64,000 bases of DNA from a virus. The stretch spans positions 31,950-95,949 of IMG/VR virus record IMGVR_UViG_3300038412_000061; one strand, given 5' to 3'. The notes beneath the pieces are model-generated. The model was given only the letters and a program-made list of their open reading frames with translations. It was not told the origin of the DNA and did not search any database. The translations under genes were made by a program, and so were the position numbers. The stretch's first letter is position 1, and each line of letters begins with the position of its first letter. Of this stretch, positions 29,599 to 64,000 are shown piece after piece.

Positions 29599-29614
29599 CA
29601 CGTAATTCACTTTT

Positions 29615-29842: not shown

Positions 29843-29843
29843 G

Positions 29844-31736: not shown

Positions 31737-31924
31737 TCGTCCTCCTCATAGTAATCGTTGTCCCAATCCTCTGGAGATCCGAGGCGCACCACGTGAACGC
31801 AGAAATCGCCGTTGTCGTCATTCATCTCTTTGTCAGAAAGTGGTACTCCACAATGCGTCATGCACACCTGACCGGAGCAATAGCCGTTTCTTTCCCCGTA
31901 TCGTAGCCATTCGTTAAAGTCCAT
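31733..31924 (-). CDS. small hypothetical protein
   Basis: FNEWLRYG..GYCS..VC.TH; acidic tail. Confidence 0.6.
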   Translation of the reverse strand: MDFNEWLRYGERNGYCSGQVCMTHCGVPLSDKEMNDDNGDFCVHVVRLGSPEDWDNDYYEEDE

Positions 31925-32927: not shown

Positions 32928-32948
32928 TTCGTCCTTTCGAAAAGTCAC

Positions 32949-45101: not shown

Positions 45102-45524
45102 GTGATTCAAAAGATCCGACCCCTACTTGTAGCAGTAATTCTTTCCCTATCAATCTTTGCCGTTCCGACAACATCCGGTGCGTCAACTCTACATCATAAG
45201 CCAGTGATTCATCTGGCTGCACACCACACACCATTAAAGCCAGTAGCTGCCACCAAACCCCTCATGCCTTTGTGGGAGTTCAAGGCCTGGGCTTGGGTCG
45301 GGTGGTGTGAAACACACGACAACTGGACCATGGAAGGTCCGTCGTATTCCGGTGCCCTAGGCATCACGCGCTCCAATTGGGTAGCCTATGGAGGACTAAG
45401 GTTCGCTTACGATGGCGCTCACGCCACGCCAATTGAACAGGCATTCATAGCTTCAAAAATTCAAGGTCATTACCCTATACCAGATCAACCGACTGGTGTT
45501 TACTGCAACCCGACAGGATGGTAA
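45102..45524 (+). CDS. secreted resuscitation-promoting-factor (Rpf)-like transglycosylase
   Basis: Signal peptide; W..V..CE...NW...Y.G.L.....W.AYGG....A.A...EQ..IA Rpf pattern with catalytic Glu. Confidence 0.8.
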   Translation: MIQKIRPLLVAVILSLSIFAVPTTSGASTLHHKPVIHLAAHHTPLKPVAATKPLMPLWEFKAWAWVGWCETHDNWTMEGPSYSGALGITRSNWVAYGGLRFAYDGAHATPIEQAFIASKIQGHYPIPDQPTGVYCNPTGW

Positions 45525-46916: not shown

Positions 46917-47406
46917 ACTAGGTGGAATCCCCATCGAAGGCTATATCATGCCCACGCATGGGGTAGTTGACCAGGACCCCATTGAGTATTTCGTTGACGC
47001 TCTTAGGGGTGTTTTCACAACCGGTGTTATCAAGGCCGTAAAGTGGGCACAGTACACGCCGTACTTCAACGATGGGGAGCCGTGCGTCTTCACGATTCAC
47101 GAGCCGTACTTCCGCTTCGCGGACCTGGACGACTACGATGATGGTGGAGACTACGAAGACGGTTACCTCTCTTCGTACGAGGAGAAATACCAGAGAATCC
47201 TTGGAGGCGATAAGTGGAATCGTGAAACTAGATCGTATGACCGCATTGAGGGGGAGGACCCGGTTACGGGCGCTCTTGTTAAGTCATTTGAGGACGTACT
47301 GAACAGTGGACGACACACTGTCGAGCTTGGGCGTATCTTCGGTGACCACGCTAAGGTGATTGCTACTCCAGACAAGTTCCTAGTCGAATCGTATGACCAC
47401 GACTAA
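46909..47406 (+). CDS. conserved phage protein (WxQYTPYFNDGEPC family)
   Basis: WAQYTPYFNDGEPCVF; C-terminal FGDH...YDHD. Confidence 0.65.
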   Translation: MSELGGIPIEGYIMPTHGVVDQDPIEYFVDALRGVFTTGVIKAVKWAQYTPYFNDGEPCVFTIHEPYFRFADLDDYDDGGDYEDGYLSSYEEKYQRILGGDKWNRETRSYDRIEGEDPVTGALVKSFEDVLNSGRHTVELGRIFGDHAKVIATPDKFLVESYDHD

Positions 47407-47699
47407 TGGCCTTCGACGCAAAGAACAATTACGTCTTTTTGACGCTAGACGACAAAGAGGACAAGGTCATGGAGTCGGGGTTGGTTATCCCACGGGGAGG
47501 CCCGTTGCCATCTGAGGGGACAGTCGTAGCAGCTGGACCGGGGAAGGTTGACGACAGAGGGCGGCTAATCCCTAACCCGGTGAACGTTGGTGATGTGGTG
47601 AACTTCGACAAGCTCCATGCTCATGGTGTGAAAATCGAGGGAACGGAATACGTGTACATCGACGCTGACCACATTCGCGCTATCTTGAAAGAGGAGTAG
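47406..47699 (+). CDS. groES: GroES-like co-chaperonin
   Basis: SGLVIP...GTVVAAGPG...VNVGDVV...VKIEGTEY. Confidence 0.85.
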   Translation: MAFDAKNNYVFLTLDDKEDKVMESGLVIPRGGPLPSEGTVVAAGPGKVDDRGRLIPNPVNVGDVVNFDKLHAHGVKIEGTEYVYIDADHIRAILKEE

Positions 47700-51334: not shown

Positions 51335-51389
51335 GAATCACCGGAAATTTTGCACATCGCGAGCGCGCGATTGGAATCTGTGCTACAAT
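51335..51389 (+). promoter_or_regulatory. element 1 (drives tRNA operon)
   Basis: GAATC..ATCGCGAGCGCGCGAT..TGC-TACAAT. Confidence 0.8.
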
Positions 51390-51528: not shown

Positions 51529-51728
51529 TGGCGAAGAAAACACCTAAGAGCATGAAGGGGAAGTTGCCACGGACGTTCACGTGTGGGTACTGTCGAGAGG
51601 GTGACCCTCCAGTCGTAACACGCATGGTTGTGAACGACCCTGCGAATCGCTACCATTTCGAGACTCAACACGCTTGGGCAAAGGACAACTGGACCCCAGT
51701 GTCAGAGAGAGGGAGCAGGGGAACGTGA
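51528..51728 (+). CDS. small basic Zn-ribbon-like protein
   Basis: MAKKTPK...CGYC...; ATG overlaps tRNA CCA. Confidence 0.5.
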   Translation: MAKKTPKSMKGKLPRTFTCGYCREGDPPVVTRMVVNDPANRYHFETQHAWAKDNWTPVSERGSRGT

Positions 51729-52012: not shown

Positions 52013-52179
52013 CAAGGGCAGAGAGAGCAAGGGCACAGGAGGAGGCGCGTAGCATGGCGGTTCGCTACGCCTTTGACGACGAGGAGAGTGGGACGGTCCA
52101 GTACGAGGGGAGCATGGCCCACAGGCGCAGTCACTCTCAGTGGGCCAATGTCGGTTCGATTGGGGCGAGCCGTTTGTAG
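52009..52179 (+). CDS. small hypothetical protein (56 aa)
   Basis: AGGAGG RBS, GTGA overlap, stop abuts element 2. Confidence 0.45.
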   Translation: MTRAERARAQEEARSMAVRYAFDDEESGTVQYEGSMAHRRSHSQWANVGSIGASRL

Positions 52180-52181
52180 TC

Positions 52182-52236
52182 GAATCCCCGAAAGGGGAGC
52201 TAATCGCGCGTGCGTGATGCACTTCAGTGCTATACT
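52182..52236 (+). promoter_or_regulatory. element 2
   Basis: CCCC-GAAA-GGGG hairpin; ATCGCGCGTGCGTGAT; TGC-TATACT. Confidence 0.85.
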
Positions 52237-52260
52237 TGAAAACGAAAGCGAGGGAAACAA

Positions 52261-52470
52261 ATGACTGAACACGATGTGAATGTCATGGAGGCACAGATTG
52301 CGCAACTTGAGTCCAACTACAAGGACGCCTGCGAGCGCTTGAATGCCATCTATGGATTGTTGCCATCGGGGACAACCGAGGAGGAAATCCGTGAAGAAAT
52401 CTACCAGGCAAACTACGACCCCATCGACGCCATTACGAAGATCGTTCAAATTCTAGAGGAGGGTGTATGA
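52261..52470 (+). CDS. small acidic protein
   Basis: First gene after element 2. Confidence 0.6.
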   Translation: MTEHDVNVMEAQIAQLESNYKDACERLNAIYGLLPSGTTEEEIREEIYQANYDPIDAITKIVQILEEGV

Positions 52471-52811
52471 GCGAAAGGCGCGTTAGGAGCAATGAGCCGT
52501 TCACCAAGGACCGTTTCTTGGGTATCAGCACTCAATCGGTACGGTCGGTCTACCGGTTTGCTGAGGAGCGTGAGGATGGTTCATATGCCGGTGGTGGATA
52601 TGCTCCCGGCGACATGATTGGTCATCAGATCATCAACACGGTGCGCGGTTTGTGTGATAAGGTGGACTACCTAGAAAGGGTCATTGTGGACATCGCTTTC
52701 GCTCTTCCGTCATCGAGGTCGGAGGTATGGGAGGGTGACGACATGTACGATTCGTTGGTGGCAATCCGAGAGATTTTGATTGAGGACGTTGGGTTTAAGG
52801 ACAACAGATGA
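52467..52811 (+). CDS. hypothetical protein
   Basis: Coupled ORF. Confidence 0.6.
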   Translation: MSERRVRSNEPFTKDRFLGISTQSVRSVYRFAEEREDGSYAGGGYAPGDMIGHQIINTVRGLCDKVDYLERVIVDIAFALPSSRSEVWEGDDMYDSLVAIREILIEDVGFKDNR

Positions 52812-53230
52812 GCGAATTCTTGAAGATTGACAGTGACGCATTGGACCGGCACATTACCGGAAATTACGGGGAGGACCAGTTGGGGACCGAGGAGCAAAAG
52901 GAGAACCTGTGGCATTGGCTTGAGAACGGTGCCGAGGACGCGTACCCAGTTGACCGCATCCTCCACGATTCTCTTTCCGAGTTCTACACGTGGGGTTTGA
53001 ACTACGACATGTCCACCAGCCCGTTCAATCTGTTCCGCGACCTGGTTGGTTGGAGCGAAGAGAACATCGGTGGGAGGTTGTACGACTACTCTGAGGGTAC
53101 ACTGGGCTACTTGGAGGCTGGACTTCTTTCAAAGGCGCTAGACTTTTGGAGTGACGACCCACGGCGCGTGGAAAAGTGGCTCGACCGTGTCAGTGAGTTG
53201 GAGTTGGCCGACTACGATGTCAATGGATAG
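52808..53230 (+). CDS. acidic hypothetical protein
   Basis: DALDRHITGNYGEDQ; LGYLEA. Confidence 0.6.
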   Translation: MSEFLKIDSDALDRHITGNYGEDQLGTEEQKENLWHWLENGAEDAYPVDRILHDSLSEFYTWGLNYDMSTSPFNLFRDLVGWSEENIGGRLYDYSEGTLGYLEAGLLSKALDFWSDDPRRVEKWLDRVSELELADYDVNG

Positions 53231-53657
53231 GTTCTATGATCAAGATGGAGGAAAGATAATGGGTATGGAAGACCACCCGTCGTTAAGCAACATGTCGCCC
53301 GACGAGCGACGGGAGTACATGCAATTCGCCAAGTTGGCGGGTCGAGACGTTCCACTACCGGAGGTAGGTAAGAAATCAATGGCAACGGAGGAATTGGTCT
53401 ACATTGACCGTGACGGTTTGTATGGTGATGCAACCGGCTTATTGGTCATCAAGACATCCGACCTGGGGGAGGGTGGCCGACAGGCCTTTGAAAAGGCCAA
53501 GGACCAGGCAGAGGACCTGTTGACGTGGGTGGTCGGATACCTTGGCGCGTCCGGCGTCCCCATCGGTGCGACTTTCGTGGCGCATACCTCCAAGTTGTAC
53601 CCGGCGACCGTCACCAAAAACTCCAGGGGCATCCTCAAGAGACTGCGGGGCATGTAG
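53223..53657 (+). CDS. hypothetical protein
   Basis: Coupled ORF; start uncertain. Confidence 0.5.
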   Translation: MDRFYDQDGGKIMGMEDHPSLSNMSPDERREYMQFAKLAGRDVPLPEVGKKSMATEELVYIDRDGLYGDATGLLVIKTSDLGEGGRQAFEKAKDQAEDLLTWVVGYLGASGVPIGATFVAHTSKLYPATVTKNSRGILKRLRGM

Positions 53658-53659
53658 AG

Positions 53660-53833
53660 ATGAGCGAGGTAGTGGGCTACACATGCAATGGTGAAATCTT
53701 TTGCCTTGCGTGTGTGGCCCTTAACCCTTGGGCGGAGCCGTTCAAACACTGTAGTCCACCCATCTTCAAGGATGAAGCGGACTACGTTGACTGTACCATT
53801 TGTGGCGCGCCCTTGATCGAATCAGCGGACTGA
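53660..53833 (+). CDS. small Zn-binding protein
   Basis: FCLAC...CTICG. Confidence 0.55.
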   Translation: MSEVVGYTCNGEIFCLACVALNPWAEPFKHCSPPIFKDEADYVDCTICGAPLIESAD

Positions 53834-53873
53834 GCTCAGATCGCGCACGCGCGATCCGCCACCGTGGTACACT
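53819..53873 (+). promoter_or_regulatory. element 3
   Basis: ATCGCGCACGCGCGAT; TGG-TACACT. Confidence 0.85.
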
Positions 53874-53898
53874 GTTTGCACAAGCGAGAGGATGCAAA

Positions 53899-54150
53899 GT
53901 GAGTAGGTTCAAGATCGGTGACGAAGTCGTCATCCACATGGATGGCAGGGACAGCGACCCTTATTGGGTGGGAAGACATGGAACCGTGTGCGACGTTCTT
54001 CCCGTTAAGGATGGGCACATTGTACCTAGCGTGTCATTCTATGTTAGTGACGCGGACACGTGGGACGTTCAGGTAAATGTGGAAGACCTGTTCGACGGCG
54101 AACTGGGGTCCGCACCATGGTTTGACGAGACTGAATTGGAGTTGGCATGA
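53899..54150 (+). CDS. SH3-like small protein
   Basis: FKIGDEV...GTV...ETELE. Confidence 0.55.
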   Translation: MSRFKIGDEVVIHMDGRDSDPYWVGRHGTVCDVLPVKDGHIVPSVSFYVSDADTWDVQVNVEDLFDGELGSAPWFDETELELA

Positions 54151-54749
54151 GTTACGTTCACGACACTTTCGTGCATGGCGACTGGAGGGTCAAAATCTTG
54201 CAGGACGAAGACTGCCCGAGTCCGCGAGAGTGGATTAACGTTGGCATAATGGTCACTTGGTGGCATGGCTACTCTTCACCAGATGGACAGGCAAACTCCT
54301 GGCACGACATTGAAGAGTTCGAGTCATGGTACAACTGGCAGGACAAAGACGAACGTTGGGTATGTTTGCCCCTGAAGCCACGGTATTACGATGGCGGGTA
54401 TCTCATTGCGTCCGACCAGGACATTTTGGAGAACCGTTATGTCGGGTGGATTTTCACTACAACGGAAACCGTGGAGTACACGGGCGCGCCGGTAGAGAGC
54501 CTTGAGGCGCAACTTCTTGCAGAGGTTGAAGAGTACAATACGTGGGCCAGCGGTTACTGCTACGGGTACGTTATAGAGCGTCTTGTCCCATCTTGTTCTT
54601 GCGGAGAGTGCAAAAACTGGGAGGAAGTCGAAGATGGTTCATGTTGGGGTTTCATTGGCAAGATTTTGGACTTCTACTACCCGGACGGTTTCCCCGAGGA
54701 GTTGAAGTGCGAATTGCGCAAGAGTGGCTACCTTGGGGAGGGAGTATGA
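54147..54749 (+). CDS. acidic, aromatic-rich conserved MGE protein
   Basis: DEDCPSPREW...EVEEYNTWASGYCYGYVIE...SCWGF. Confidence 0.65.
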   Translation: MSYVHDTFVHGDWRVKILQDEDCPSPREWINVGIMVTWWHGYSSPDGQANSWHDIEEFESWYNWQDKDERWVCLPLKPRYYDGGYLIASDQDILENRYVGWIFTTTETVEYTGAPVESLEAQLLAEVEEYNTWASGYCYGYVIERLVPSCSCGECKNWEEVEDGSCWGFIGKILDFYYPDGFPEELKCELRKSGYLGEGV

Positions 54750-54970
54750 GCGCGGGAATAGCGAAGGTCAGGAACTACCATCCGGGGGAGTTCATCTACG
54801 GGCGGAAAATTCTGAATGAAGAGACCGTTGATGTGTTTCTTACAGATGTCGAGGTGGAGAGCGCCGAGAGGGGCCTGGTGGATGACAACGGGAACGTCGT
54901 GTTGGAGATCGAAGTGGACGGTTGCATCGAACTTGTCATTGTACAATCGATAGATTTGGAGTGGCGATGA
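54746..54970 (+). CDS. small acidic protein
   Basis: ATGA coupled. Confidence 0.5.
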   Translation: MSAGIAKVRNYHPGEFIYGRKILNEETVDVFLTDVEVESAERGLVDDNGNVVLEIEVDGCIELVIVQSIDLEWR

Positions 54971-54990
54971 AGGAATCAATGTGATTGAAT

Positions 54991-55045
54991 GAATCCGAGC
55001 AACCGGAGCTAATCGCGCGTGCGCGATCCAGATCTGTGGTACACT
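54991..55045 (+). promoter_or_regulatory. element 4
   Basis: ATCGCGCGTGCGCGAT; TGG-TACACT. Confidence 0.85.
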
Positions 55046-55072
55046 GTGACCACGAACAAGGAAAGGCAACAC

Positions 55073-55378
55073 ATGAAGGTGCGAATCACGGAGGGTCAGT
55101 CGGTGACTGGAATCTCCTCTCACAACTACCCGCGCGGTACGGTTGTCGAGGTGAACGACGACCTTGTCATTTTGGACGGCCCGAGGCCAGGGTACATTCT
55201 GGACGCTGATTGGTGCGAAGAGGTCGAGGGCGACACCTCATCCTACGCCGTCAACGTTAGAATTACGTATGAGGAGGTCCGAGGCCTTGAAAGGGTGATT
55301 GCTTTCGCTGAGGACGAGGGCCTGAATGTTGACCTTGAGTGGGGAGTTTTGGGAAAGATCAGAAAGGCCATGCAATGA
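55073..55378 (+). CDS. hypothetical protein
   Basis: RBS; first gene after element 4. Confidence 0.55.
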   Translation: MKVRITEGQSVTGISSHNYPRGTVVEVNDDLVILDGPRPGYILDADWCEEVEGDTSSYAVNVRITYEEVRGLERVIAFAEDEGLNVDLEWGVLGKIRKAMQ

Positions 55379-55671
55379 GGCACCTAGACGCAATGATGTT
55401 GCAGATCAAGAGTCTTGACAACGATGCTTCCGTCCGATACAGTCAGTACACCCACATGTGGTACGTGTCGGCAAACATCGAGATTGGTGGCGATGGGCTT
55501 CTGTCAGGAATCGCTTCACATGCCGAATCCCCCCAGTTGGCTGTAGAGGAGTATTTCAAAGTCATCACCACAGTGCCCATTGGCTATTACCTGGTAACGG
55601 AGCGTGGGGAGGGGCGTCGTGAGTGGTTGTGGAATGGTGCCGCATTTTTTGAGACTGGACGGACGAAATGA
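55375..55671 (+). CDS. hypothetical protein
   Basis: ATGA coupled. Confidence 0.55.
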   Translation: MRHLDAMMLQIKSLDNDASVRYSQYTHMWYVSANIEIGGDGLLSGIASHAESPQLAVEEYFKVITTVPIGYYLVTERGEGRREWLWNGAAFFETGRTK

Positions 55672-56066
55672 CAGATATTGACCTGGACAAGATAGTTAAC
55701 GGGTACCTTCAATGTGCCCTGTTTACGGGGGTGACTGAAGACGACGAGCCCATGGACTACGTCTACAACATTGGCGATTTTTCCGAAGAGGCGGTCGAGC
55801 AGGCAACCGTGGAATGTGCTCTTTTCGTGCAGTCGAATTTGGACGACGTTAGAGAGTTGCTGGATTCCCATGGTGGGGTCGATAACGAGGACATCGGTAT
55901 GGACTTGTGGTACACCCGGAATGGACATGGATGTGGCTTTTGGGACCGGGGGTATGGCGAGTTGGGCGACCGTCTGACCGAGTACTGCCACACTATCCCA
56001 GAGCGTAGTGTGGTGGCAGGGGATGGAAACGAATTCGAGTTGGGCGACACGTTGGTGATCGAATGA
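55668..56066 (+). CDS. acidic conserved phage protein
   Basis: YLQCALF...G.DLWYTRNGHGCGFWDRG. Confidence 0.65.
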   Translation: MTDIDLDKIVNGYLQCALFTGVTEDDEPMDYVYNIGDFSEEAVEQATVECALFVQSNLDDVRELLDSHGGVDNEDIGMDLWYTRNGHGCGFWDRGYGELGDRLTEYCHTIPERSVVAGDGNEFELGDTLVIE

Positions 56067-56290
56067 ATGAGAGCGTGCGTACCGTAACTGACAAAGAAAT
56101 CTGGGAATTGAGCGCTAGTGCTGTTAACGCCATGGACAATTTCTTTGACAATGAGGCTGATGTTGGCGGAGACATGAATGAATGGACTCACGCTGACGCA
56201 GTTGCGTTGTGGGATGACATAATCATGTATTTGGAATCTCGTCGGAATCGTAGCAAAGAGATTGTGGAGAGTAGCGAAAATGGTAGTTAA
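56063..56290 (+). CDS. small acidic protein
   Basis: Coupled ORF. Confidence 0.5.
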   Translation: MNESVRTVTDKEIWELSASAVNAMDNFFDNEADVGGDMNEWTHADAVALWDDIIMYLESRRNRSKEIVESSENGS

Positions 56291-56447
56291 GTCCAAGCAC
56301 ACAGGCGAGTCGTGGGTGGTCATTGCCAACCGTGAGAGATGGGAGCGAAGAAGGGAAGAGGCTAAGGCAAGACGCCTTGAACTGTTGAAGGTCCGTGCCG
56401 ATTACTACGCCAGAATCTCGCACGACTACGACAACGATCTTATTTGA
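56280..56447 (+). CDS. small hypothetical protein
   Basis: Stop TGA lies in the TGAATC of element 5. Confidence 0.45.
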   Translation: MVVKSKHTGESWVVIANRERWERRREEAKARRLELLKVRADYYARISHDYDNDLI

Positions 56448-56501
56448 ATCCCCGGAAAAGGGGTGGAATCGCGCGTACGCGATAAGCTAATCTGGTACAC
56501 T
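56446..56501 (+). promoter_or_regulatory. element 5
   Basis: CCCC..GGGG hairpin; ATCGCGCGTACGCGAT; TGG-TACACT. Confidence 0.85.
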
Positions 56502-56527
56502 GGTGCAAACGACTTGAGAGGAATACT

Positions 56528-56923
56528 GTGGAACTTGAATTGAAGGAACGGTGGGTAGGCGCACTTCGAAGCGGTGAGTATCGTCAGGGGAAGGGAGTGC
56601 TACGCACCGATAGTGACAAGTACTGTTGCTTGGGAGTTTTGTGCAACCTGGTGGACCCCAACGCCTGGGAGCCGGGTACCGTGTCCCAATGGGTGGGCTC
56701 AGAGGAGGGCGATGACGGCGCAATGGTCGAGGCTCGCGTCTACCCACAGCCTTTGAATTCGAGGGAGAAGATCGACGAGAAGGCGATTCCCTACACCTTC
56801 CTCTCTACCAAGTTCTTGCAAGATGTAGGCCTGGATGAAGGGATTGCTCACATGCTTGCCGAACGCAACGACCTTGGATGGTCTTTCGGTGAACTGGCTG
56901 AACTGATCGAAGAGAGGGTCTGA
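56528..56923 (+). CDS. conserved phage protein (WV.ALRSG.Y.QG...CCLGV family)
   Basis: WVGALRSGEYRQGKG, YCCLGVLC, NDLGWSF. Confidence 0.7.
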   Translation: MELELKERWVGALRSGEYRQGKGVLRTDSDKYCCLGVLCNLVDPNAWEPGTVSQWVGSEEGDDGAMVEARVYPQPLNSREKIDEKAIPYTFLSTKFLQDVGLDEGIAHMLAERNDLGWSFGELAELIEERV

Positions 56924-56926
56924 TTT

Positions 56927-56981
56927 GAATCCCCGGAAGGGGGTATGATCGCGCGTGCGCGATCTGCGCATTCGGTAGACT
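56927..56981 (+). promoter_or_regulatory. element 6
   Basis: CCCC-GGAA-GGGG; consensus palindrome; TAGACT. Confidence 0.85.
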
Positions 56982-57006
56982 GGAGACAAGCAAAACAGGA
57001 GGAATT

Positions 57007-57270
57007 ATGAGTTTTTTCACAGCGAAGTACATCCGAGAGTGCTTGGATGGAGTGCCGGACGATGAGCCTGTATTCGGCATTATCTTCACCCGCGCCGAGA
57101 ACGAAGTGGACGCGGTGGACGAGGACGGGAACTACGGTAGCCGTGTAACGACTCCTGCGGAGTGGGAGAAGATCGTGGAAAGGGCCGAGTCATATGCGGA
57201 GCCCTACGGTTTTAATAGTCTGTGGGAGTGTCTGAACGACGCCAAGAGCGAAGTGGTGACTTGTGACTAA
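57007..57270 (+). CDS. small acidic protein
   Basis: AGGAGG RBS. Confidence 0.6.
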   Translation: MSFFTAKYIRECLDGVPDDEPVFGIIFTRAENEVDAVDEDGNYGSRVTTPAEWEKIVERAESYAEPYGFNSLWECLNDAKSEVVTCD

Positions 57271-57502
57271 ATTCACCTACACCGTTACCGTGGAGGTCGA
57301 GGACGACTTGGGTATGCCAATCGAGTGCTACAACGAGGATTTGTTCGATTGGACGGACGACGACTACGACGAGGACGGCAACATAACAGCGCGGTGGTTG
57401 TCCCCCGATACCATGGCAAGCATCGTTATGGCGAATCGCTTGGGTTGCGACGAGGACTACGGGTTTGACTACACCGTGGATTGGAGTAGGGCTGATGGCT
57501 GA
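57263..57502 (+). CDS. very acidic small protein
   Basis: DWTDDDYDEDG; coupled. Confidence 0.55.
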   Translation: MTKFTYTVTVEVEDDLGMPIECYNEDLFDWTDDDYDEDGNITARWLSPDTMASIVMANRLGCDEDYGFDYTVDWSRADG

Positions 57503-57758
57503 ATTGGACGAGGTATTGGCCCTGGCTATTGAGGACTACGACCCGGAGGCTTTCTACGACGGGGAAGAGCAGATTGTCAAGGAGAGCGTCACAGAGTTGT
57601 ATGGGTGTATTGCGTTCCCAACCGACTACTCTCCCGAGCAAATCCTGTCGGAATACCACGACACATTCCTGGGGTGGTACGACAGTTTTGAGGCGATGGC
57701 TGACGACAACATTTTTGACACGTGGGAGTCTGAGGGGTACTACTTTAGGAGCGTCTGA
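57495..57758 (+). CDS. ArdA-like acidic protein (short paralog)
   Basis: FLGWYDSFEAMA...WESEGYYFR, similar to 61361-61732. Confidence 0.5.
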   Translation: MAELDEVLALAIEDYDPEAFYDGEEQIVKESVTELYGCIAFPTDYSPEQILSEYHDTFLGWYDSFEAMADDNIFDTWESEGYYFRSV

Positions 57759-57768
57759 TCGAGCGAAC

Positions 57769-57823
57769 GAATCCCCCCGAGTGGGAACAATCGCGTGCAC
57801 GCGATCTGCATCTTTGATACACT
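57769..57823 (+). promoter_or_regulatory. element 7
   Basis: Perfect palindrome ATCGCGTGCACGCGAT; TGA-TACACT. Confidence 0.85.
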
Positions 57824-57841
57824 GGAGGAACAGGGGGGCAA

Positions 57842-58030
57842 ATGGACTACACGGTTCAGAGGTATGAAATCACATTGGAAGTGAGGGACGACGGGTTCGT
57901 CAATCTCAGCATTTCGTTCACGAGGAACGACGGAGAGCCGGATTGGCACAGCCACAATCGTGTGACACTTGACTACGCCATCAAGCGTATAGAGATGCAC
58001 GCGCACGCTGGTCACGCGAGGGAGGAGTAA
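57842..58030 (+). CDS. small hypothetical protein
   Basis: First gene after element 7. Confidence 0.55.
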   Translation: MDYTVQRYEITLEVRDDGFVNLSISFTRNDGEPDWHSHNRVTLDYAIKRIEMHAHAGHAREE

Positions 58031-58173
58031 TGCACATTTTTCACAAGTGGGGGAAGTGGGAGGCCTTCGACGTGTTGTCAGTTGACACGTCCACCGGTAA
58101 GGGGTATGAGGTTACGCGACAAAAGCGTATGTGTCGTAAGTGTGGACTACTGAGGGTCAAGAAACTGGGGTAG
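58030..58173 (+). CDS. small Zn-ribbon protein
   Basis: HKWGKW...QKRMCRKCG; TAATG overlap. Confidence 0.5.
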   Translation: MHIFHKWGKWEAFDVLSVDTSTGKGYEVTRQKRMCRKCGLLRVKKLG

Positions 58174-58235
58174 GGGAAACCAAAGTACGAATCATGGTCA
58201 TGGAGTGCACCAATTTGAGGGGTGGTCATGGGGTT

Positions 58236-58289
58236 AAATCCCCGGACCGGAGCTGATCGTGCGCGCGCGATACCCGCACCTGGTACACT
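58236..58289 (+). promoter_or_regulatory. element 8
   Basis: AAATC; ATCGTGCGCGCGCGAT; TGG-TACACT. Confidence 0.8.
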
Positions 58290-58312
58290 GGAATCACAAG
58301 CGAGGAGAGAAT

Positions 58313-58543
58313 ATGGAAAGCCCAACAGTATCATTCGCAGTGGAGAGCGAGTTCGACGCCAGGGTTGTGGAGAACTTCTACAACACTTTGCGCCGTGTCC
58401 GCGAGTTGAAGACCATGTCGGTCCGCAAGCCGGGGATGTCAACCGAGGAGCAGGAGACAGCCGACCTGGCCCTTGACGACTACAACAATGCACGCTGGTC
58501 AATGTTCCGCTGGATTGAGCGACGTTGCGAGGACGGTGTCTGA
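58313..58543 (+). CDS. hypothetical protein
   Basis: GAGGAG RBS. Confidence 0.55.
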   Translation: MESPTVSFAVESEFDARVVENFYNTLRRVRELKTMSVRKPGMSTEEQETADLALDDYNNARWSMFRWIERRCEDGV

Positions 58544-58770
58544 TGGACCAAGACATCATTACCCTGTTGGAGAGGGTGAGGGAGAAACGGCACGCGTGGA
58601 GGTTCGGTGACACCTTCGGGGACGACGAGCGTTACGAAGAGTACGCCAAAGCGAAGAAAGAGTACATGAGGTTCTGTGAATATGCCGTGTACGACGAGCG
58701 CGGAGAGGACGAGCAACCGCGAGACACCTTCGGTCTGGGAAAGTTGGAGGAGGCCCACGCAGAATGGTGA
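58543..58770 (+). CDS. hypothetical protein
   Basis: TGATG coupled. Confidence 0.55.
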   Translation: MDQDIITLLERVREKRHAWRFGDTFGDDERYEEYAKAKKEYMRFCEYAVYDERGEDEQPRDTFGLGKLEEAHAEW

Positions 58771-59060
58771 GCAATTTTTTTGGGAGGGGGAGGAAGGTAT
58801 ACGACGACGCACCGCCCGAGTACTCCTCAGTGCAAACAGACTCGCTGGAAGATGCAGAGGCACTTAAACTTATATACAGGTACGTAAAGATGAGCCGTGT
58901 CATACACACCCTGGGAGAGAGGGATGGCATGGTGTACGACGACTTGGAAGCGGACCTGGTTGGGAAAACATGTGGATTGGTGGGTGACATGATCGACCCC
59001 GAGTGGGGTAGCAAGTTCAGGGAAATCCTTTATCGGGATGGGGTGGTTTGGTATGTGTGA
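58764..59060 (+). CDS. hypothetical protein
   Basis: Coupled ORF. Confidence 0.5.
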   Translation: MVSNFFGRGRKVYDDAPPEYSSVQTDSLEDAEALKLIYRYVKMSRVIHTLGERDGMVYDDLEADLVGKTCGLVGDMIDPEWGSKFREILYRDGVVWYV

Positions 59061-59241
59061 ATTGGACAAAGAGACTGAGTCATGGGAATACGGGGAAAGA
59101 GGGTTACAGCGTAGAGGGACACAGGAAATCCTAGATCGAACGGAGAAGCCATTGGTGGACAATCACGGTAGATACGTGTGGACCGTAACTTACTGCCAGT
59201 ATGGTGGAAAGAGGTTCAAAGCCACATGGAGGGAATATTAG
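59053..59241 (+). CDS. small hypothetical protein
   Basis: Coupled ORF. Confidence 0.45.
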   Translation: MCELDKETESWEYGERGLQRRGTQEILDRTEKPLVDNHGRYVWTVTYCQYGGKRFKATWREY

Positions 59242-59620
59242 TCTTCATCGAATCATTCTGGCACCTATGAACGCTGAAGGTACATAGTGACTTTGGGATG
59301 ATGAGTTGTTTTGAACCTATACCCATACTGGTTGAATTCCCTGATGGGTGTGGTGGAATGGGTATGAATCACACGTCTTTCGGAAAAACACACGTGTATG
59401 CGTGATTTTGCACCACCGTTGCACGGAATTCCGAATTATTCCTGATCAAATCATGTAATTTGCACCAATCCTCATTGAATCATGCGCGAAAGTAGACAAA
59501 ATGGACGCGGGAAGGGGGTTATTCCGGGTATTTCACCCACCTATTTTGACCAGGCAAAACGTGAAAAAAAGGGAGGTTTCACACCGGGGCTGAGTAAATT
59601 GAAAGTAGACAAGCGTGATC

Positions 59621-59657
59621 GAATCACGGGTTCGCCGCCGAATCGCGCGCACGCGAT
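59621..59657 (+). promoter_or_regulatory. element 9 (truncated: no -10, no cargo)
   Basis: GAATC..ATCGCGCGCACGCGAT followed 7 nt later by element 10. Confidence 0.8.
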
Positions 59658-59664
59658 CCACATT

Positions 59665-59719
59665 GAATCACGGGTGGGCAGGAGCATCGCGCGTGCGCGA
59701 TAGCCCTGAATCGTAAGAT
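59665..59719 (+). promoter_or_regulatory. element 10 (leaderless)
   Basis: Consensus palindrome; TAAGAT; ATG at 59726. Confidence 0.8.
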
Positions 59720-59725
59720 TTGGGC

Positions 59726-59908
59726 ATGGAAACCTACCAAATCAAAGACTGGACCGGGAAGGTGTGTTTCTTCGGTCAGACGTTCGAATCCTTCGAAGAC
59801 GCATGGGGCTTCATCTACGAGTCCGACCCGGAACCGTCACAGGGAGACCCCAGGTGGCAAGATGGATGGTACGACGACTACTATGTGGAACCGGTGGAGG
59901 GTGATTGA
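59726..59908 (+). CDS. small acidic aromatic protein
   Basis: FESFEDAWGFIYE...YDDYYVE; stop in TGAATC. Confidence 0.6.
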   Translation: METYQIKDWTGKVCFFGQTFESFEDAWGFIYESDPEPSQGDPRWQDGWYDDYYVEPVEGD

Positions 59909-59961
59909 ATCACCGGTTTGCCGGTTAATCGCGCGCGCGCGATGACTCTGGGTGATAGAGT
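59907..59961 (+). promoter_or_regulatory. element 11
   Basis: ACCGG-TTTG-CCGGT; AT(CG)6AT; TGA-TAGAGT. Confidence 0.85.
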
Positions 59962-59978
59962 GGTGGAAAAGGAGGGAC

Positions 59979-60125
59979 ATGTCTACACCATACAGTGACA
60001 CCCAGTTGGAGACAGCGGGAAGGGATGTGGAGTTAACGTTCCAAGCGTGGCAGGATGCCATAGCAGTACAGGACATGATGTTGGAGCACAATGTTTTGGT
60101 GGAGAGGGAGGAAGACTTCTATTAA
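59979..60125 (+). CDS. small acidic protein (48 aa)
   Basis: AAGGAGG RBS; MSTPYSDTQLE...EEDFY. Confidence 0.55.
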   Translation: MSTPYSDTQLETAGRDVELTFQAWQDAIAVQDMMLEHNVLVEREEDFY

Positions 60126-60126
60126 C

Positions 60127-60180
60127 GAATCCCCGGCGCGGGGAATTTCGTGCGCGCGCGATGGGGGACTGTGATAGAGT
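60127..60180 (+). promoter_or_regulatory. element 12
   Basis: TTCGTGCGCGCGCGAT; TGA-TAGAGT. Confidence 0.8.
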
Positions 60181-60198
60181 AGTGGGAAAGGAGGGTTC

Positions 60199-60330
60199 AT
60201 GGAATACTGTTCAGGGTGTAATTACGACCACTCGCCATCAGACTGTTCTTATGGAATGTCGGTGGAGGATTACGAGCGTGAATCAGGAGACTACCGAACG
60301 GAAGAGAGATACGCCAACGGAGAGCACTAA
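60199..60330 (+). CDS. small Cys/acidic protein (43 aa)
   Basis: AAGGAGG RBS; CSGC..H....C. Confidence 0.55.
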   Translation: MEYCSGCNYDHSPSDCSYGMSVEDYERESGDYRTEERYANGEH

Positions 60331-60331
60331 T

Positions 60332-60387
60332 GAATCACCGGGAAACCGGGTATATCGCGCGTGCGCGATCAGCTGGTGTATTACACT
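60332..60387 (+). promoter_or_regulatory. element 13
   Basis: CCGG-GAAA-CCGG; consensus palindrome; TACACT. Confidence 0.85.
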
Positions 60388-60418
60388 TGGGAGCAAGGAA
60401 TCAACCAAAGGAGATGAA

Positions 60419-60634
60419 GTGGCAACAAGATACGAGTATGAGGTTCAGGTCACCCACTATGTGGCGTTCTACGACGATGATGTGGTGGGGGACAGCCGTT
60501 TCGAGGGCGACCCGGACAACGTGACCGACGAGGACCGCGCAGGGTTCGCCAGTCGTAACTGGGGCGGAGTGTACGACACGGATTTCTCATTCGACGTGGT
60601 GAACGAGTACGACGCGACGGAGGAGGAAGACTGA
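60419..60634 (+). CDS. very acidic small protein
   Basis: AAGGAG RBS, GTG start. Confidence 0.6.
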   Translation: MATRYEYEVQVTHYVAFYDDDVVGDSRFEGDPDNVTDEDRAGFASRNWGGVYDTDFSFDVVNEYDATEEED

Positions 60635-60801
60635 TGGCGAGCAAGCGACAATTGCCCAAGGATGCGGTGCACAAGCGATTCCTTCCCCCCGGTCCCTGCG
60701 ATTTTTGTGGGGTGGAAGGACCATTGAGGGCGGTCAAGCGCGGAAAGGGTGAGGCGAATTACTACTGCATTCCCTGTCACGTGGACGGCAACGCCGCGTG
60801 A
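60634..60801 (+). CDS. small Zn-finger protein (55 aa)
   Basis: CDFCG...YCIPCH; TGATG coupled. Confidence 0.55.
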   Translation: MASKRQLPKDAVHKRFLPPGPCDFCGVEGPLRAVKRGKGEANYYCIPCHVDGNAA

Positions 60802-60803
60802 AT

Positions 60804-60858
60804 GAATCCCCGGAAGGGGGTGCAATCGCGCGTGCGCGATGGGGTGGTGTGTTACACT
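60804..60858 (+). promoter_or_regulatory. element 14
   Basis: CCCC-GGAA-GGGG; consensus; TGT-TACACT. Confidence 0.85.
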
Positions 60859-60886
60859 GAGAGCAAGAAGCAACCAAGGAGGCACA

Positions 60887-61246
60887 ATGGGCACAGTCCA
60901 GATAGTAAGAGAGATTGATGAGACCGAGTTTTGGTCCAACATCATGGGGAGTGGCTGGGAGTCGTTCGGCAGTTGGTGGGTCTCGGAGGACTACATCTCA
61001 GGTGACTGGGAAACACCGGGGGAAGTGACACTGACAATTGCGGACCCGGAGAACGAAGACACGGTGGTCGTGGGGAAGGTGACACTGCCCATCCTACTCC
61101 AAGCCTACAATGACCTTTGGGCGAAGGTAGGTCAGAAGGGTAGCGACGGTATGCACCCTGACTACCTGGACATCGACAATCTCGATTGCGTGGGTGGCGA
61201 CGGAATCCTCCAGCAGGCCATCCTAGGTGGTGTCATCTACGGGTGA
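60887..61246 (+). CDS. acidic conserved phage protein
   Basis: C-terminal LD...D.ILQ.A..G.VIYG; AAGGAGG RBS. Confidence 0.65.
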   Translation: MGTVQIVREIDETEFWSNIMGSGWESFGSWWVSEDYISGDWETPGEVTLTIADPENEDTVVVGKVTLPILLQAYNDLWAKVGQKGSDGMHPDYLDIDNLDCVGGDGILQQAILGGVIYG

Positions 61247-61274
61247 GTTTTTATGCAGACCGGTGAGTTTTAAT

Positions 61275-61330
61275 GAATCACCGGCTTTGCACCCCCATCG
61301 CGCGCGCGCGATCCCCACGCCTGCTACAAT
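61275..61330 (+). promoter_or_regulatory. element 15
   Basis: AT(CG)6AT; TGC-TACAAT. Confidence 0.85.
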
Positions 61331-61360
61331 GTAGACGTACCAAACAACCGAAGGAGAGAT

Positions 61361-61732
61361 ATGACGGATTACACAGAAGGCCCGGAAGTCGAGGTCGAGG
61401 AAGACGAGGGGGAGGAGTTGGAAGGTTTCGCCCGAATTCTGGACGAAGTTCCCAGCAACCTCGCGAGCCTTGATGAGGAGGCGTTTGAGGCGTTCTACGA
61501 CAACCAGCCATCCTACTGGGACTCGTGCGACGTAGAAGATTTCTGGAGCGAGTTTGAGGACGCCTATCAGGGCACGTGGTCCAGCGATGAGGAATTCGCC
61601 CAGGAGATGGCTGAGATGTCGGGATACCGCGCCAGCAATGAGTGGCCTTACTACTGCATCAACTGGGATTTCGCGGCCCGTGAGTTGATGTACGACTATT
61701 TCGAGAGTGGCGGGTACTACTTCCGTCGCTAA
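61361..61732 (+). CDS. ArdA-like antirestriction protein (DNA mimic)
   Basis: FEDAYQGTWSSDEEFAQE...YYCINWDFAAREL..DY....GYYFR; very D/E-rich. Confidence 0.72.
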   Translation: MTDYTEGPEVEVEEDEGEELEGFARILDEVPSNLASLDEEAFEAFYDNQPSYWDSCDVEDFWSEFEDAYQGTWSSDEEFAQEMAEMSGYRASNEWPYYCINWDFAARELMYDYFESGGYYFRR

Positions 61733-61737
61733 AATTC

Positions 61738-61790
61738 GCGGGGGTAGGGTTTCTTGGTTGTCCCTACCCCCGCCCTCCACGAACCAAGAA
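61738..61790 (+). other. H-type RNA pseudoknot / strong hairpin after ArdA-like gene
   Basis: 12-bp stem GCGGGGGTAGGG/CCCTACCCCCGC; loop TTCTTGGTT complementary to downstream AACCAAGAA. Confidence 0.6.
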
Positions 61791-61803
61791 CGCGTGCGTA
61801 ATC

Positions 61804-61858
61804 AAATCACGCGCTTGCCCATCCATCGCGCGTGCGCGATGACCTCATCTGGTACACT
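61804..61858 (+). promoter_or_regulatory. element 16
   Basis: AAATC; consensus; TGG-TACACT. Confidence 0.85.
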
Positions 61859-61882
61859 GTGCGTACCAACCAAAGGAGTGAG

Positions 61883-62095
61883 ATGAAGACCTACACAGTT
61901 TGCCAGCGTGTCTACTGCTATGACACGTTTGACGAGTCGGACATCCCGGAGGGTTTGACCCCCATCGAGTACGCCGAACAGCGTTACGAAGAAGAGTTGG
62001 GCGACCCGGATTCGCATGAGTTGTATCTCATTGGTGAGGACGAGGACGGCAGGGTGTTCATGAGCATCGACACCGCCGACATGGAGGAGGATTAA
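61883..62095 (+). CDS. very acidic small protein
   Basis: AAAGGAG RBS. Confidence 0.6.
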   Translation: MKTYTVCQRVYCYDTFDESDIPEGLTPIEYAEQRYEEELGDPDSHELYLIGEDEDGRVFMSIDTADMEED

Positions 62096-62096
62096 C

Positions 62097-62152
62097 GAAT
62101 CACGGGGAAACCCGCAGAATCGCGCGTGCGCGATGGGGGGAAGATGTAGACT
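62097..62152 (+). promoter_or_regulatory. element 17
   Basis: CGGG-GAAA-CCCG; consensus; TAGACT. Confidence 0.85.
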
Positions 62153-62175
62153 GATGACACAACCAAAGGAGCAAG

Positions 62176-62493
62176 ATGTATTCATGGGAGATTGACAAGG
62201 ACGGGATCTACAGCCACCCACAATTCCATGGTGTGGCTTTGTACTGCAAGGGTCCGGCTAAGTCGTGGACTGATGAGTCCTGGGAGTTGGTGTGCGACGA
62301 GGAGGAATGCGACCACACTAGCGACATGTGTTACTACTACATCGAGCCCGAGGAATTCGAGGATGAGGAGCGCGTGGTGGTGGTGATGGTGGGCGACGAC
62401 TGGAAGCACACTGTCTACGCCGAGGACCTGACCAAGATTGACGAAGAGGACTACTGCCATGGGTGCGGTCAAATCGGGTGCGGTCATAGTTGA
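62176..62493 (+). CDS. acidic Cys-rich conserved phage protein
   Basis: VMVGDD...EEDYCHGCGQIGC; stop in TGAATC. Confidence 0.65.
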   Translation: MYSWEIDKDGIYSHPQFHGVALYCKGPAKSWTDESWELVCDEEECDHTSDMCYYYIEPEEFEDEERVVVVMVGDDWKHTVYAEDLTKIDEEDYCHGCGQIGCGHS

Positions 62494-62546
62494 ATCCGGG
62501 GAACCGGGTACAATCGCGCGTGCGCGATAGACACATGTGTTATACT
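62492..62546 (+). promoter_or_regulatory. element 18
   Basis: CCGG-GGAA-CCGG; consensus; TGT-TATACT. Confidence 0.85.
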
Positions 62547-62574
62547 GGGCACATCACCAACCAAGGAGGATGAG

Positions 62575-62721
62575 ATGGCTTGCGAAGACTTCCCGTGCTG
62601 TGGGCACGAGATGGGCGATTGCGAGGGCCTGTTGTACGGCTCGGACGAGAGCATCAAGGCGCGCGTGTATGCTCGGATGGAGCAGGACTACTACGACCCG
62701 TACTACGATGACGAGTACTAG
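62575..62721 (+). CDS. small CEDxPCCGH-motif acidic protein (48 aa)
   Basis: MACEDFPCCGH...YYDDEY; AAGGAGG RBS. Confidence 0.6.
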   Translation: MACEDFPCCGHEMGDCEGLLYGSDESIKARVYARMEQDYYDPYYDDEY

Positions 62722-62724
62722 GTC

Positions 62725-62779
62725 GAATCCCCGAAAGGGGGTGCAATCGCGCGTGCGCGATGCGGAGGGATGGTATACT
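62725..62779 (+). promoter_or_regulatory. element 19 (leaderless)
   Basis: CCCC-GAAA-GGGG; consensus; TGG-TATACT; ATG at 62785. Confidence 0.85.
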
Positions 62780-62784
62780 GAGAC

Positions 62785-63003
62785 ATGACCAAAAAACAAC
62801 TACAAATCATGTCTTACGCCATTGCCATTGCGACATTCGTGGTGGTCTTCGAGATTCTGGACGTTCTTGCTGGCTACAACGCTGGCGTAGCGATTCAATG
62901 GCTCGTTATCATCGTCTCCCTACTCATTGCGTCCGCTGTCCTGCTGGTGGTTGCTCTGTGTGTCATGGCGGTATCCCCCCCAAAGAGACACCGCCGATAC
63001 TAG
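62785..63003 (+). CDS. 2-TM membrane protein
   Basis: Hydrophobic; leaderless start. Confidence 0.6.
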   Translation: MTKKQLQIMSYAIAIATFVVVFEILDVLAGYNAGVAIQWLVIIVSLLIASAVLLVVALCVMAVSPPKRHRRY

Positions 63004-63019
63004 GGGAGGGTGCGTGATT

Positions 63020-63074
63020 GAATCACGCGCCAGCCCGCTCATCGCGCGCGCGCGATCCGCCTACCTGCTACACT
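63020..63074 (+). promoter_or_regulatory. element 20
   Basis: AT(CG)6AT; TGC-TACACT. Confidence 0.85.
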
Positions 63075-63097
63075 GGTGGTACGATCAAGGAGATGAG

Positions 63098-63271
63098 ATG
63101 AACGGATACATAGCGTTTTACAAGGGGAAGCGGACTGAAGTCTACGCGGAGACCCTGTACGGTGCGCAGTTGGAAGCGGCTAAGTTCTTCGGTGCCAAAA
63201 AGTCTTATGAGGTCATTGTGGGACTGGCCGAGAAAGATGGTGTGCCAGTGGTGCACCGCGCGGTTGATTGA
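63098..63271 (+). CDS. conserved small phage protein
   Basis: MNGYIAFYKGKRTEVYA...AQ..AA..F; stop in TGAATC. Confidence 0.65.
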   Translation: MNGYIAFYKGKRTEVYAETLYGAQLEAAKFFGAKKSYEVIVGLAEKDGVPVVHRAVD

Positions 63272-63324
63272 ATCACGCGCAGCTGCGTGCATCGCGCGCG
63301 CGCGATTGCCGGACCTGCTAGACT
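63270..63324 (+). promoter_or_regulatory. element 21
   Basis: AT(CG)6AT; TGC-TAGACT. Confidence 0.85.
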
Positions 63325-63351
63325 GTGCGCATCACCAACCAAGGAGATGTC

Positions 63352-63597
63352 ATGGAAGACTGCTACTACTGTGATGGCGAGCACGCCGAGGGAAATTGCC
63401 CGGTGCGCTCGGGAGATGTCCCCCTGCGCGAATGGAAGTGCGACTGCGGGCGCGTGGTGCAACTGTACTACTGGGAGCGTGCCAGCGACACGTCGTGCGA
63501 CTGCGGGCAGATGTTCAATTGCTGGGGTCAGCGCGTTAACGGCTCTCTGTACGACATCGACCCCATGGACGTAGGGGAGGGGTGGGACGATGATTGA
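63352..63597 (+). CDS. small multi-Cys Zn-binding acidic protein
   Basis: CYYC..H, CDCG x2, FNCWGQ; stop in TGAATC. Confidence 0.6.
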   Translation: MEDCYYCDGEHAEGNCPVRSGDVPLREWKCDCGRVVQLYYWERASDTSCDCGQMFNCWGQRVNGSLYDIDPMDVGEGWDDD

Positions 63598-63650
63598 ATC
63601 CCCACCGGGGACACACATCGCGCGTGCGCGATCCGGGAGTGTGGTACACT
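63596..63650 (+). promoter_or_regulatory. element 22 (no protein cargo evident)
   Basis: Consensus palindrome; TGG-TACACT. Confidence 0.85.
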
Positions 63651-63768
63651 GGGAATAGGCAGGAATCACGGAGGAGTAATTAACCATCCGGGTGAGATGT
63701 GCACTATCACCCTAATTCGTCTCGGGCCACCGGAGCGATGAGTGATGCCTAAACAGGTGGCATTTATC

Positions 63769-63823
63769 AAATCACCTGCCCCGACACACATCGCGTGCGC
63801 GCGATCCGGGGAAATGTTAGACT
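63769..63823 (+). promoter_or_regulatory. element 23
   Basis: AAATC; ATCGCGTGCGCGCGAT; TGT-TAGACT. Confidence 0.85.
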
Positions 63824-63867
63824 GGTGACATGAAGGACAAGACATACCAAGCGTGGGAGGAACTACA

Positions 63868-63987
63868 ATGGACGAGCAGGAACTCATCGAAGCCCAGGAC
63901 GAGAACCGGAGCAAGACTGCTGAGGAACTGGAAGAGGAGTCGCGTCGATTTCTGACGGACCACTTCGTCTTCCTTCAGGTCGGTTGA
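63868..63987 (+). CDS. small acidic protein (39 aa)
   Basis: GGAGG RBS; MDEQELIEAQDE. Confidence 0.45.
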   Translation: MDEQELIEAQDENRSKTAEELEEESRRFLTDHFVFLQVG

Positions 63988-64000
63988 GCCGGTGGGGGTG

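Follow-up and report, generated by a model that had tools for sequence, protein, structure and literature searches.

What kind of element punctuates the run of very small genes at the end of this phage sequence, and does it mark the joints at which those genes are exchanged? The 64,000-nt stretch analysed here (the window) covers positions 31950-95949 of G000, the 95,949-bp IMG/VR virus record IMGVR_UViG_3300038412_000061, and towards its end carries an array of short gene units, each opened by a repeated intergenic element built around a palindrome. The original prediction for this locus held that the elements delimit cassettes in an integron-like array, moved either by a site-specific recombinase or by the phage's own recombination proteins. 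Comparison with related phages partly supports the shuffling interpretation. That units are gained, lost and reordered at the elements is borne out by several findings: cassette orders are not colinear, entire cassettes are present or missing, one element is a chimera that crosses over in the palindrome, and homology ends gather in palindromes; in the relatives we found neither an identical gene order nor breakpoints unrelated to the elements. The array is in our view probably a case of shuffling by homologous recombination between repeated regulatory elements, comparable to that of the promoter-early stem-loop (PeSL) cassettes of T4-type phages, and not an integron.

The most regular part of the element is a 16-bp palindrome, ATCGCGCGTGCGCGAT, which at three mismatches or fewer occurs at 23 sites on the + strand between window positions 51356 and 63790 (shuffled sequences give 0.36); it can also be written ATCGCGCG(T/C)GCGCGAT, with the same 23 + strand positions. 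The final 247 nt of the record repeat its first 247 nt with one mismatch (genome 95703-95949 and 1-247; from window position 63754), and therefore the assembly, with 95,702 bp of unique sequence, is either circular or terminally redundant, and the array wraps round the record ends. It runs on across this junction to genome positions 37-1809, which brings the total to 28 distinct copies in about 14.5 kb, all on the + strand. Elsewhere in the genome the palindrome has no site at one mismatch or fewer, and one weak site at two mismatches (window 39178, - strand).

The palindrome belongs to a composite element of about 95 nt, the parts of which follow each other in a set order: the stop codon of the preceding gene; (G/A)AATC, hereafter RAATC; a short hairpin, often with a GNRA loop; the palindrome ATCGCGCGNGCGCGAT; 12 nt to the -10 within the motif TGnTAnnnT; and a ribosome-binding site or a leaderless ATG at the head of a small gene. 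Its geometry was counted on an alignment of 73 elements from three arrays, 28 from G000 and 27 and 18 from two related metagenome contigs, L224 and L227. The consensus of the 73 copies reads T.AT..AATC, 16 nt, ATCGCGCGNGCGCGAT, 9 nt, TGnTAnnnT. TAnnnT lies exactly 12 nt past the palindrome in 66 elements, with TG at -15/-14, and AATC lies 20 nt ahead of it in 53. The 16-nt spacer after AATC folds into a hairpin of at least 4 bp in 46 elements, with GNRA loops in 26 of those, and the stems vary between copies in a mutually compensating manner, which points to a structure acting in RNA. In the remaining copies the partner of AATCAC is GTGATT at the upstream gene's end, a pairing that puts the TGA stop in the loop. 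Past the -10 there is either an AAGGAG-type ribosome-binding site or an ATG only 6 nt away. Such leaderless starts, without a Shine-Dalgarno (SD) sequence, are found at window positions 59726, 62785 and 63830, at 2895, 5898 and 7171 in L224, and at 2905 and 5947 in L227; the conserved ATG at this distance supports the -10 as a real promoter element. The element has neither a -35 hexamer nor an AT-rich tract, its hairpins are not followed by a T-run, and a consensus scan gave no enrichment of canonical -35/-10 promoters or hairpin-plus-T-run terminators in the region. RAATC at the strict spacing is confined to the genus of G000, and the palindrome followed after 12 nt by TAnnnT is clade-wide.

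The stop codons are equally tied to the element. By curated gene calls five genes end, as originally described, with a TGA fused into TGAATC (56447, 59908, 62493, 63271 and 63597), and seven further stops reported near the element (52179, 56923, 60125, 60330, 60801, 62095 and 62721) do lie close to it, 3-6 nt before RAATC. On the + strand between 54990 and 63600 TGAATC occurs 16 times against about 2.5 expected, an excess of about 6.5-fold (Poisson 9e-9). Taking the whole G000 array, 17 of 28 upstream stops fall within -6 to 0 of the R in RAATC (binomial 4e-7 against a uniform 40-nt null), a count made with a crude longest-open-reading-frame (ORF) rule; the corresponding figures for L224 and L227 are 16/27 and 11/18.

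From this layout, the GC hairpin would end or stabilise the upstream RNA, and the palindrome, sitting where a -35 box is expected, is probably the operator or activator site that the units share, for a regulator encoded by the phage. The pattern palindrome-9N-TGnTAnnnT had no match among prokaryotes (one genome for each of 185,579 species) and, within one clade, recurs as arrays in eight or more viral or metagenome contigs (G006-G009, L006, L224 and L227); the signal therefore belongs to phages, and its reader probably is phage-encoded. A winged helix-turn-helix (wHTH) protein of 75 aa, encoded at window 31509-31736 on the - strand, is kept in all six array-bearing or related genomes and is a candidate reader of the palindrome. 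A literature search for palindromic intergenic repeats of actinophages yielded nothing relevant.

To compare gene content, the arrays were cut at the palindromes, the element halves trimmed and the translated intervals matched. L224 and L227, with 27 and 18 elements, were recovered by a metagenome scan with RAATC-N16-palindrome, and their downstream flanks are 74-82% identical to G000 at the amino acid level, making them genus-level relatives. G000 cassettes #9,12,13,14,15,17,18,22,24,25,27 correspond to L224 #8,10,13,5,7,21,15,23,22,24,26, and G000 #7,9,12,13,14,18,22,23,25 to L227 #0,6,7,9,4,11,15,10,16. Of the 28 G000 cassettes 12-13 are shared with L224 and L227, and for about 15 neither relative has an equivalent. 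To get from the order in G000 to that in these relatives takes at least three changes, for example B..C D E F against E F B C..D, and I J K against K I (letters denote cassette genes, most of them listed below). The D/E/F and I/J/K changes sit within one continuous Logan unitig and therefore are not joining errors. Between L224 and L227 the order is colinear, and the differences are whole-cassette indels: L224 #9, #11, #14, #17 and #19-22 are missing in L227, and L227 #10 and #14 in L224. The same holds in a second genus pair, G006 and G007, whose elements are without RAATC: the order 4,5,6,8,9,11,12,15 in one corresponds to 1,2,3,6,8,12,9,7 in the other, and each of the two has cassettes that its partner lacks.

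The nearest full genome, G001, is syntenic with G000 at 65-78% nucleotide identity except in the array, which has no nucleotide similarity to the G001 record. That record stops 220 nt past a single element and restarts inside the gene following the array (L092:8678-8953; L088:1-380), so that the array is entirely unassembled, though CheckV rates the record 100% complete; ending at the array edge, it is unusable for array comparison. Two other candidates were set aside: G002 is a fragment that does not include the array, and G003 is essentially unrelated, with 6 shared ORFs and no dominant palindrome.

The breakpoints themselves carry the argument further. The L227 element at 3130 is identical to L224:3120 at 58 of 60 positions left of the palindrome, and to L224:3396 at 68 of 75 positions right of it: it joins two L224 elements cleanly into a chimera that changes over within the palindrome. 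Among 18 homology ends between L224 and L227, seven map to the palindrome, with matching offsets in the two sequences (P=3e-4), and an eighth lies one base outside; others are at the RAATC edge (-24, -20) or past the -10 (+34, +64). Between G000 and these relatives, at 70-77% nucleotide identity, three homology ends were found at palindromes. They include cassette 62492-62761, where homology to L224 stops exactly at the palindrome end in both sequences; at element 23 (palindrome 63790) homology to both L224 and L227 begins at the palindrome. A single cleavage site would explain crossovers at several conserved parts of the element less well than exchange guided by homology.

Exchange between copies has also left its mark on the element halves. 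The 22-nt left half TGAATCCCCGGAAGGGGGTGCA is identical after the unrelated G000 genes C and L, the L224 orthologues of which carry other hairpins. Each genome moreover has its own flavour of element, GAATC in 24/28 copies and mostly TACACT in G000, AAATC in 20/27 and mostly TAGGCT or TACGAT in L224. Element halves therefore have been homogenised within each genome, which needs exchange between non-allelic copies.

The units and genes along the array, in window coordinates, are the following.

51335-51389, + strand: element 1, with GAATC, spacer, palindrome 51356-51371 and -10 TACAAT; the sole element with an orthologue in the G001 record.
52182-58289, + strand: elements 2-8, palindromes at 52203, 53840, 55012, 56468, 56948, 57790 and 58256; multi-gene units of 0.5-1.6 kb.
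59621-59719, + strand: tandem elements 9 and 10, palindromes at 59642 and 59686, 44 nt apart; the first without TAnnnT (-10) or cargo.
59726-59908, + strand: cassette gene B, 60 aa, leaderless, its TGA fused to TGAATC; orthologues in L224 (#8), L227 (#6) and G009.
59907-60387, + strand: elements 11-13, palindromes at 59928, 60147 and 60354; single small genes at 59979-60125 and 60199-60330.
60419-60801, + strand: unit 12, with an ORF at 60419-60634 and gene C at 60634-60801, 55 aa, 67-69% aa identity to L224 #10 and L227 #7.
60804-60858, + strand: element 14, palindrome at 60825; its 38-nt core is 1 base off the element at genome 1315-1352, and Logan unitigs break here.
60887-61246, + strand: cassette gene D, 119 aa; also L224 #13, L227 #9 and in G008.
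61361-61732, + strand: cassette gene E, 123 aa, ArdA-like anti-restriction protein; also L224 #5, L227 #4 and in G008.
61883-62095, + strand: cassette gene F, 70 aa; also L224 #7.
62176-62493, + strand: cassette gene, 105 aa, not in L224 or L227; best database homologue 48% identical.
62492-62761, + strand: the whole of cassette 17, with element, gene 62575-62721 and next palindrome; 76% nucleotide identity to L224 6696-6961.
62785-63003, + strand: cassette gene 18, 72 aa, leaderless; also L224 #15 and L227 #11.
63020-63650, + strand: elements 20-22, palindromes at 63041, 63291 and 63617; genes at 63098-63271 and 63352-63597.
63769-63955, + strand: element 23 (palindrome 63790) and leaderless gene I at 63830-63955; also L224 #23 and L227 #15.

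From 59.6 kb onward most units had been described as an element, a ribosome-binding site and a single gene. The genes are indeed small (126-372 nt by curated calls); the rest of the description gives way at three leaderless genes (59726, 62785 and 63830) and at unit 60354-60825, which has two ORFs. The tandem elements 9 and 10, the first without a -10 and with no cargo between the two, are likewise real. Their interpretation as an empty cassette is not established: a deletion between two elements leaves a single chimeric one, and comparable tandem pairs are seen again in relatives. Some units with a full predicted promoter hold no ORF of 25 aa or more over 130-175 nt (window 63617-63790; L224 481-821; L227 1689-1996), and a cluster of closely spaced elements lies past the unit of gene A, at the same relative place in all three arrays. 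These ORF-less units and clustered elements may be small RNAs or a regulatory hub. The cargo consists mostly of ORFans, together with the one ArdA-like gene, whose match in Pfam reaches 24.2 bits (below the cut-off of 27) and in PHROG, to an anti-restriction family, E=2e-9. No paralogue of any cassette was found within the G000 array, the within-array matches being the translated element itself.

How could such units be moved? A recombination module, in window coordinates, is found on the - strand.

28061-32948, - strand: recombination module, conserved in all genomes with a palindrome array.
28061-28483, - strand: SSB.
28739-29587, - strand: ERF.
29844-31043, - strand: YqaJ-like exonuclease.
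31509-31736, - strand: the wHTH protein.
31914-32948, - strand: RecA.

Annealing-protein and exonuclease pairs of phages recombine short, diverged homologies. We propose that the array is the hyperplastic early region, devoted to host takeover and anti-defence, of a virulent phage, organised as about 28 self-contained expression units. Each unit boundary would be made up of the upstream stop, RAATC, the GC hairpin, the CG palindrome at the -35 position, the extended -10, and the SD or leaderless ATG, with the roles predicted above. The element would primarily be an expression signal and, because it is repeated, would serve also as a preferred and harmless crossover point. With the same 40-60 nt recurring in direct orientation each 0.2-1.5 kb, non-allelic exchange would delete, insert, replace or transpose whole units, leaving genes and signals unbroken, and might take place within one genome or between co-infecting relatives. 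The phage's own ERF, YqaJ and SSB, with RecA, most likely would supply the machinery. The original prediction had already pointed to RecA, ERF and YqaJ; the genes are real, and as machinery these proteins appear more likely than a site-specific enzyme.

Several points weigh against this proposal. Only three G000 homology ends lie at palindromes, and no relative was found above about 70-77% nucleotide identity, so that the breakpoints of G000 itself are mapped at cassette resolution only. The tract of identity at the best-mapped crossover is just 17-19 nt, which is little for homologous recombination of the classical kind. Under any mechanism, surviving breakpoints could pile up in intergenic elements through selection for viable recombinants. 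Finally, the read-level data are the Logan contigs of a single run.

That run, a mine-drainage metagenome and the probable source of the record, is the only one found to hold G000 DNA, and a search of sequencing runs found no RNA run holding the sequence. The only joint in its Logan contigs is the record's own wrap-around plus repeats. One Logan unitig of 4,290 nt (window 60803-64000 plus genome 1-1352) extends between two near-identical 38-nt elements at a k-mer depth of 39.2, compared with 23.7 upstream and 29.8 downstream (flanking range 19-30x). The raised depth may reflect a long terminal repeat, a duplication or circle of the segment, or strains sharing part of the array. In Logan unitigs a 149-nt bubble at window 51548-51696, with alleles at 19.5 and 9.2, indicates two strains.

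Selection after the event is the core of one alternative, according to which the elements are purely regulatory and the changes in content stem from illegitimate recombination or horizontal exchange, recombinants with broken genes being lost. The conserved geometry and the leaderless starts do show expression to be the primary role of the element, and several homology ends lie inside genes owing to divergence. We nevertheless hold this explanation unlikely: the chimera was joined in register within a shared 17-19 nt and gave a perfect element, as illegitimate joins would not; the homogenised halves require exchange between elements; and the same pattern recurs in two independent genus pairs.

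A different possibility is that the palindrome, besides its part in promoter or operator, serves as a dedicated joint for recombination, recognised by a protein specific to the clade (the wHTH protein, for instance, or an uncharacterised protein of the ERF/YqaJ module), and that exchange is recombinase-independent, perhaps by way of promoter-bearing mini-circles. The 1.5-2x depth of the 4.3-kb segment might be a trace of this. We give this possibility, too, a small chance.

The integron-like part of the original prediction fares worse. Here the palindrome would be a dedicated site-specific site, the analogue of attC or attI in a phage 'integron', and an unrecognised recombinase or nuclease would move the cassettes as circles. 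The array does resemble an integron in being a direct series of single-gene units with a repeated symmetric site, units that are gained, lost and reordered. The palindrome is nearly invariant while other parts of the element drift, about 40% of the mapped homology ends lie in it at the same offset in both partners, its absence with the -10 from the 185,579 prokaryote genomes indicates a phage-specific reader, and several clade-conserved proteins of the recombination module have no assigned function. Profile searches of the complete 95.9-kb record nonetheless gave no match to tyrosine (Phage_integrase, PF00589) or serine (Resolvase, PF00239) recombinases, and G000 has no IntI-type enzyme and no attI. 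Its site is a perfect or near-perfect palindrome of fixed length, whereas attC is imperfect and folded, with extrahelical bases and variable length. Each G000 unit has its own predicted TGnTAnnnT promoter in place of a common Pc, and the exact 12-nt distance to the -10 in 66/73 elements argues for a role in transcription. The homology ends at the RAATC edge and past the -10 are a further objection. Taken together, these features make a site-specific system quite improbable. That the rearrangements are assembly artefacts, produced by assemblers jumping between repeated elements, is least credible of all and very improbable indeed: Logan unitigs do break at the 38-nt near-identical elements, and the interruption of the G001 record confirms that such arrays are hard to assemble, but the D/E/F and I/J/K order changes lie within single unitigs, most element pairs share 20 nt of identity or less (under the assembler k), and the L224 and L227 variants were each assembled twice (99.7-99.97%), with both present in assembly Ga0209067.

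Homologous exchange between elements, the reading we prefer, has its closest parallel in the PeSL mobile regulatory cassettes of T4-type phages (Arbiol et al. 2010, PMC2839356; Comeau et al. 2014, PMC4122927), in which exchange between two elements leaves one chimeric motif (PMC2839356). In both systems upstream stop, stem-loop, early promoter, SD and start make up one composite intergenic motif, whose copies cluster where small ORFans form a hyperplastic region; related phages differ by indels and replacements that have the motif as their boundary, unit loss leaves a chimeric motif, and there is no dedicated recombinase. The differences are considerable. The G000 lineage is not a T4-type myovirus: it is without the T4 core and has WhiB, ERF and YqaJ. 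The sigma-70 -35/-10, the AT-rich tract and the terminator stem-loop of PeSLs are not found in its element, which instead of a -35 box has a 16-bp CG palindrome at a rigid distance from an extended -10, and 16 nt upstream of that palindrome the conserved RAATC, with a separate GNRA hairpin. Some G000 units, furthermore, are leaderless. Excised mini-circles are a further part of the PeSL description.

Two other known systems share part of this picture. The stoperators of Cluster A mycobacteriophages, sites for the L5 gp71 repressor, are asymmetric sequences of 13-14 bp that are spread genome-wide in temperate phages and act in lysogeny. As in G000, many copies of a short intergenic site lie by gene ends, and one phage protein (in G000 probably) reads them and controls a block of genes; the G000 site differs in being symmetric, in its restriction to the early region and in its constant place at -35, and no integrase is encoded in the genome. 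The host-takeover module of SPO1 has in common with G000 a dense block of very small early genes for host takeover, each unit with its own strong promoter and ribosome-binding site. Its promoters are ordinary sigma-A -35/-10 promoters, and we know of no description of palindrome-bounded shuffling in that module.

The phage lineage is remote from cultured phages. Megablast found no match to the array among 50,697 phage records, and the helicase is at most 28% identical to its nearest cultured matches, in Arthrobacter and Caulobacter phages. The window encodes two WhiB-like proteins, an Rpf-type transglycosylase domain and a GroES (Cpn10) homologue (25654-26097 on the - strand; 38404-38748, 45102-45524 and 47406-47699 on the + strand). 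WhiB is an actinobacterial and actinophage family, and the host therefore is probably an actinobacterium; promoters with TAnnnT only and frequent leaderless mRNAs fit such a host. G000, G001, G002 and G006-G009 form one clade of uncultured, 80-96-kb phages from bog-lake and mine-drainage metagenomes, their terminase, portal, capsid, tail, helicase and recombination module being 35-85% identical at the amino acid level. Every clade member that includes the early region carries an array of the same palindrome with the -10 12 nt away. The 303-aa protein encoded downstream of the array, used as a query, led to no related loci, and strict and loose element patterns in viral contigs returned chance single matches, with the exception of L006 (IMGVR_UViG_3300025723_001708). 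This 14.5-kb contig of 49% GC has about 20 copies of ATCGCGCGGGCGCGAT, with -10 and small genes, and shares at least one cassette protein with the G000 unit 53151-53657. Of the genus-level relatives, each variant was assembled in different IMG assemblies: L224 is matched over part of its length by L225, at 99.97% identity, and L227 likewise by L221, at 99.66%.

This case takes PeSL-type modular shuffling beyond the T4-like phages and their Gram-negative hosts, to an uncultured, WhiB-encoding clade that probably infects actinobacteria, and it offers an unusually clean chimeric junction together with replication in two genus pairs. Each gene appears to travel with a promoter half and an RNA-end half of its own, and the shared palindrome would provide both common regulation and a safe point of crossover. 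Such an arrangement would be a way for a phage to keep a fast-changing set of anti-defence and host-takeover genes. The array is a catalogue of about 28 unexplored early genes, one of them ArdA-like, and the element itself is a compact, portable, putative expression unit with strict geometry.

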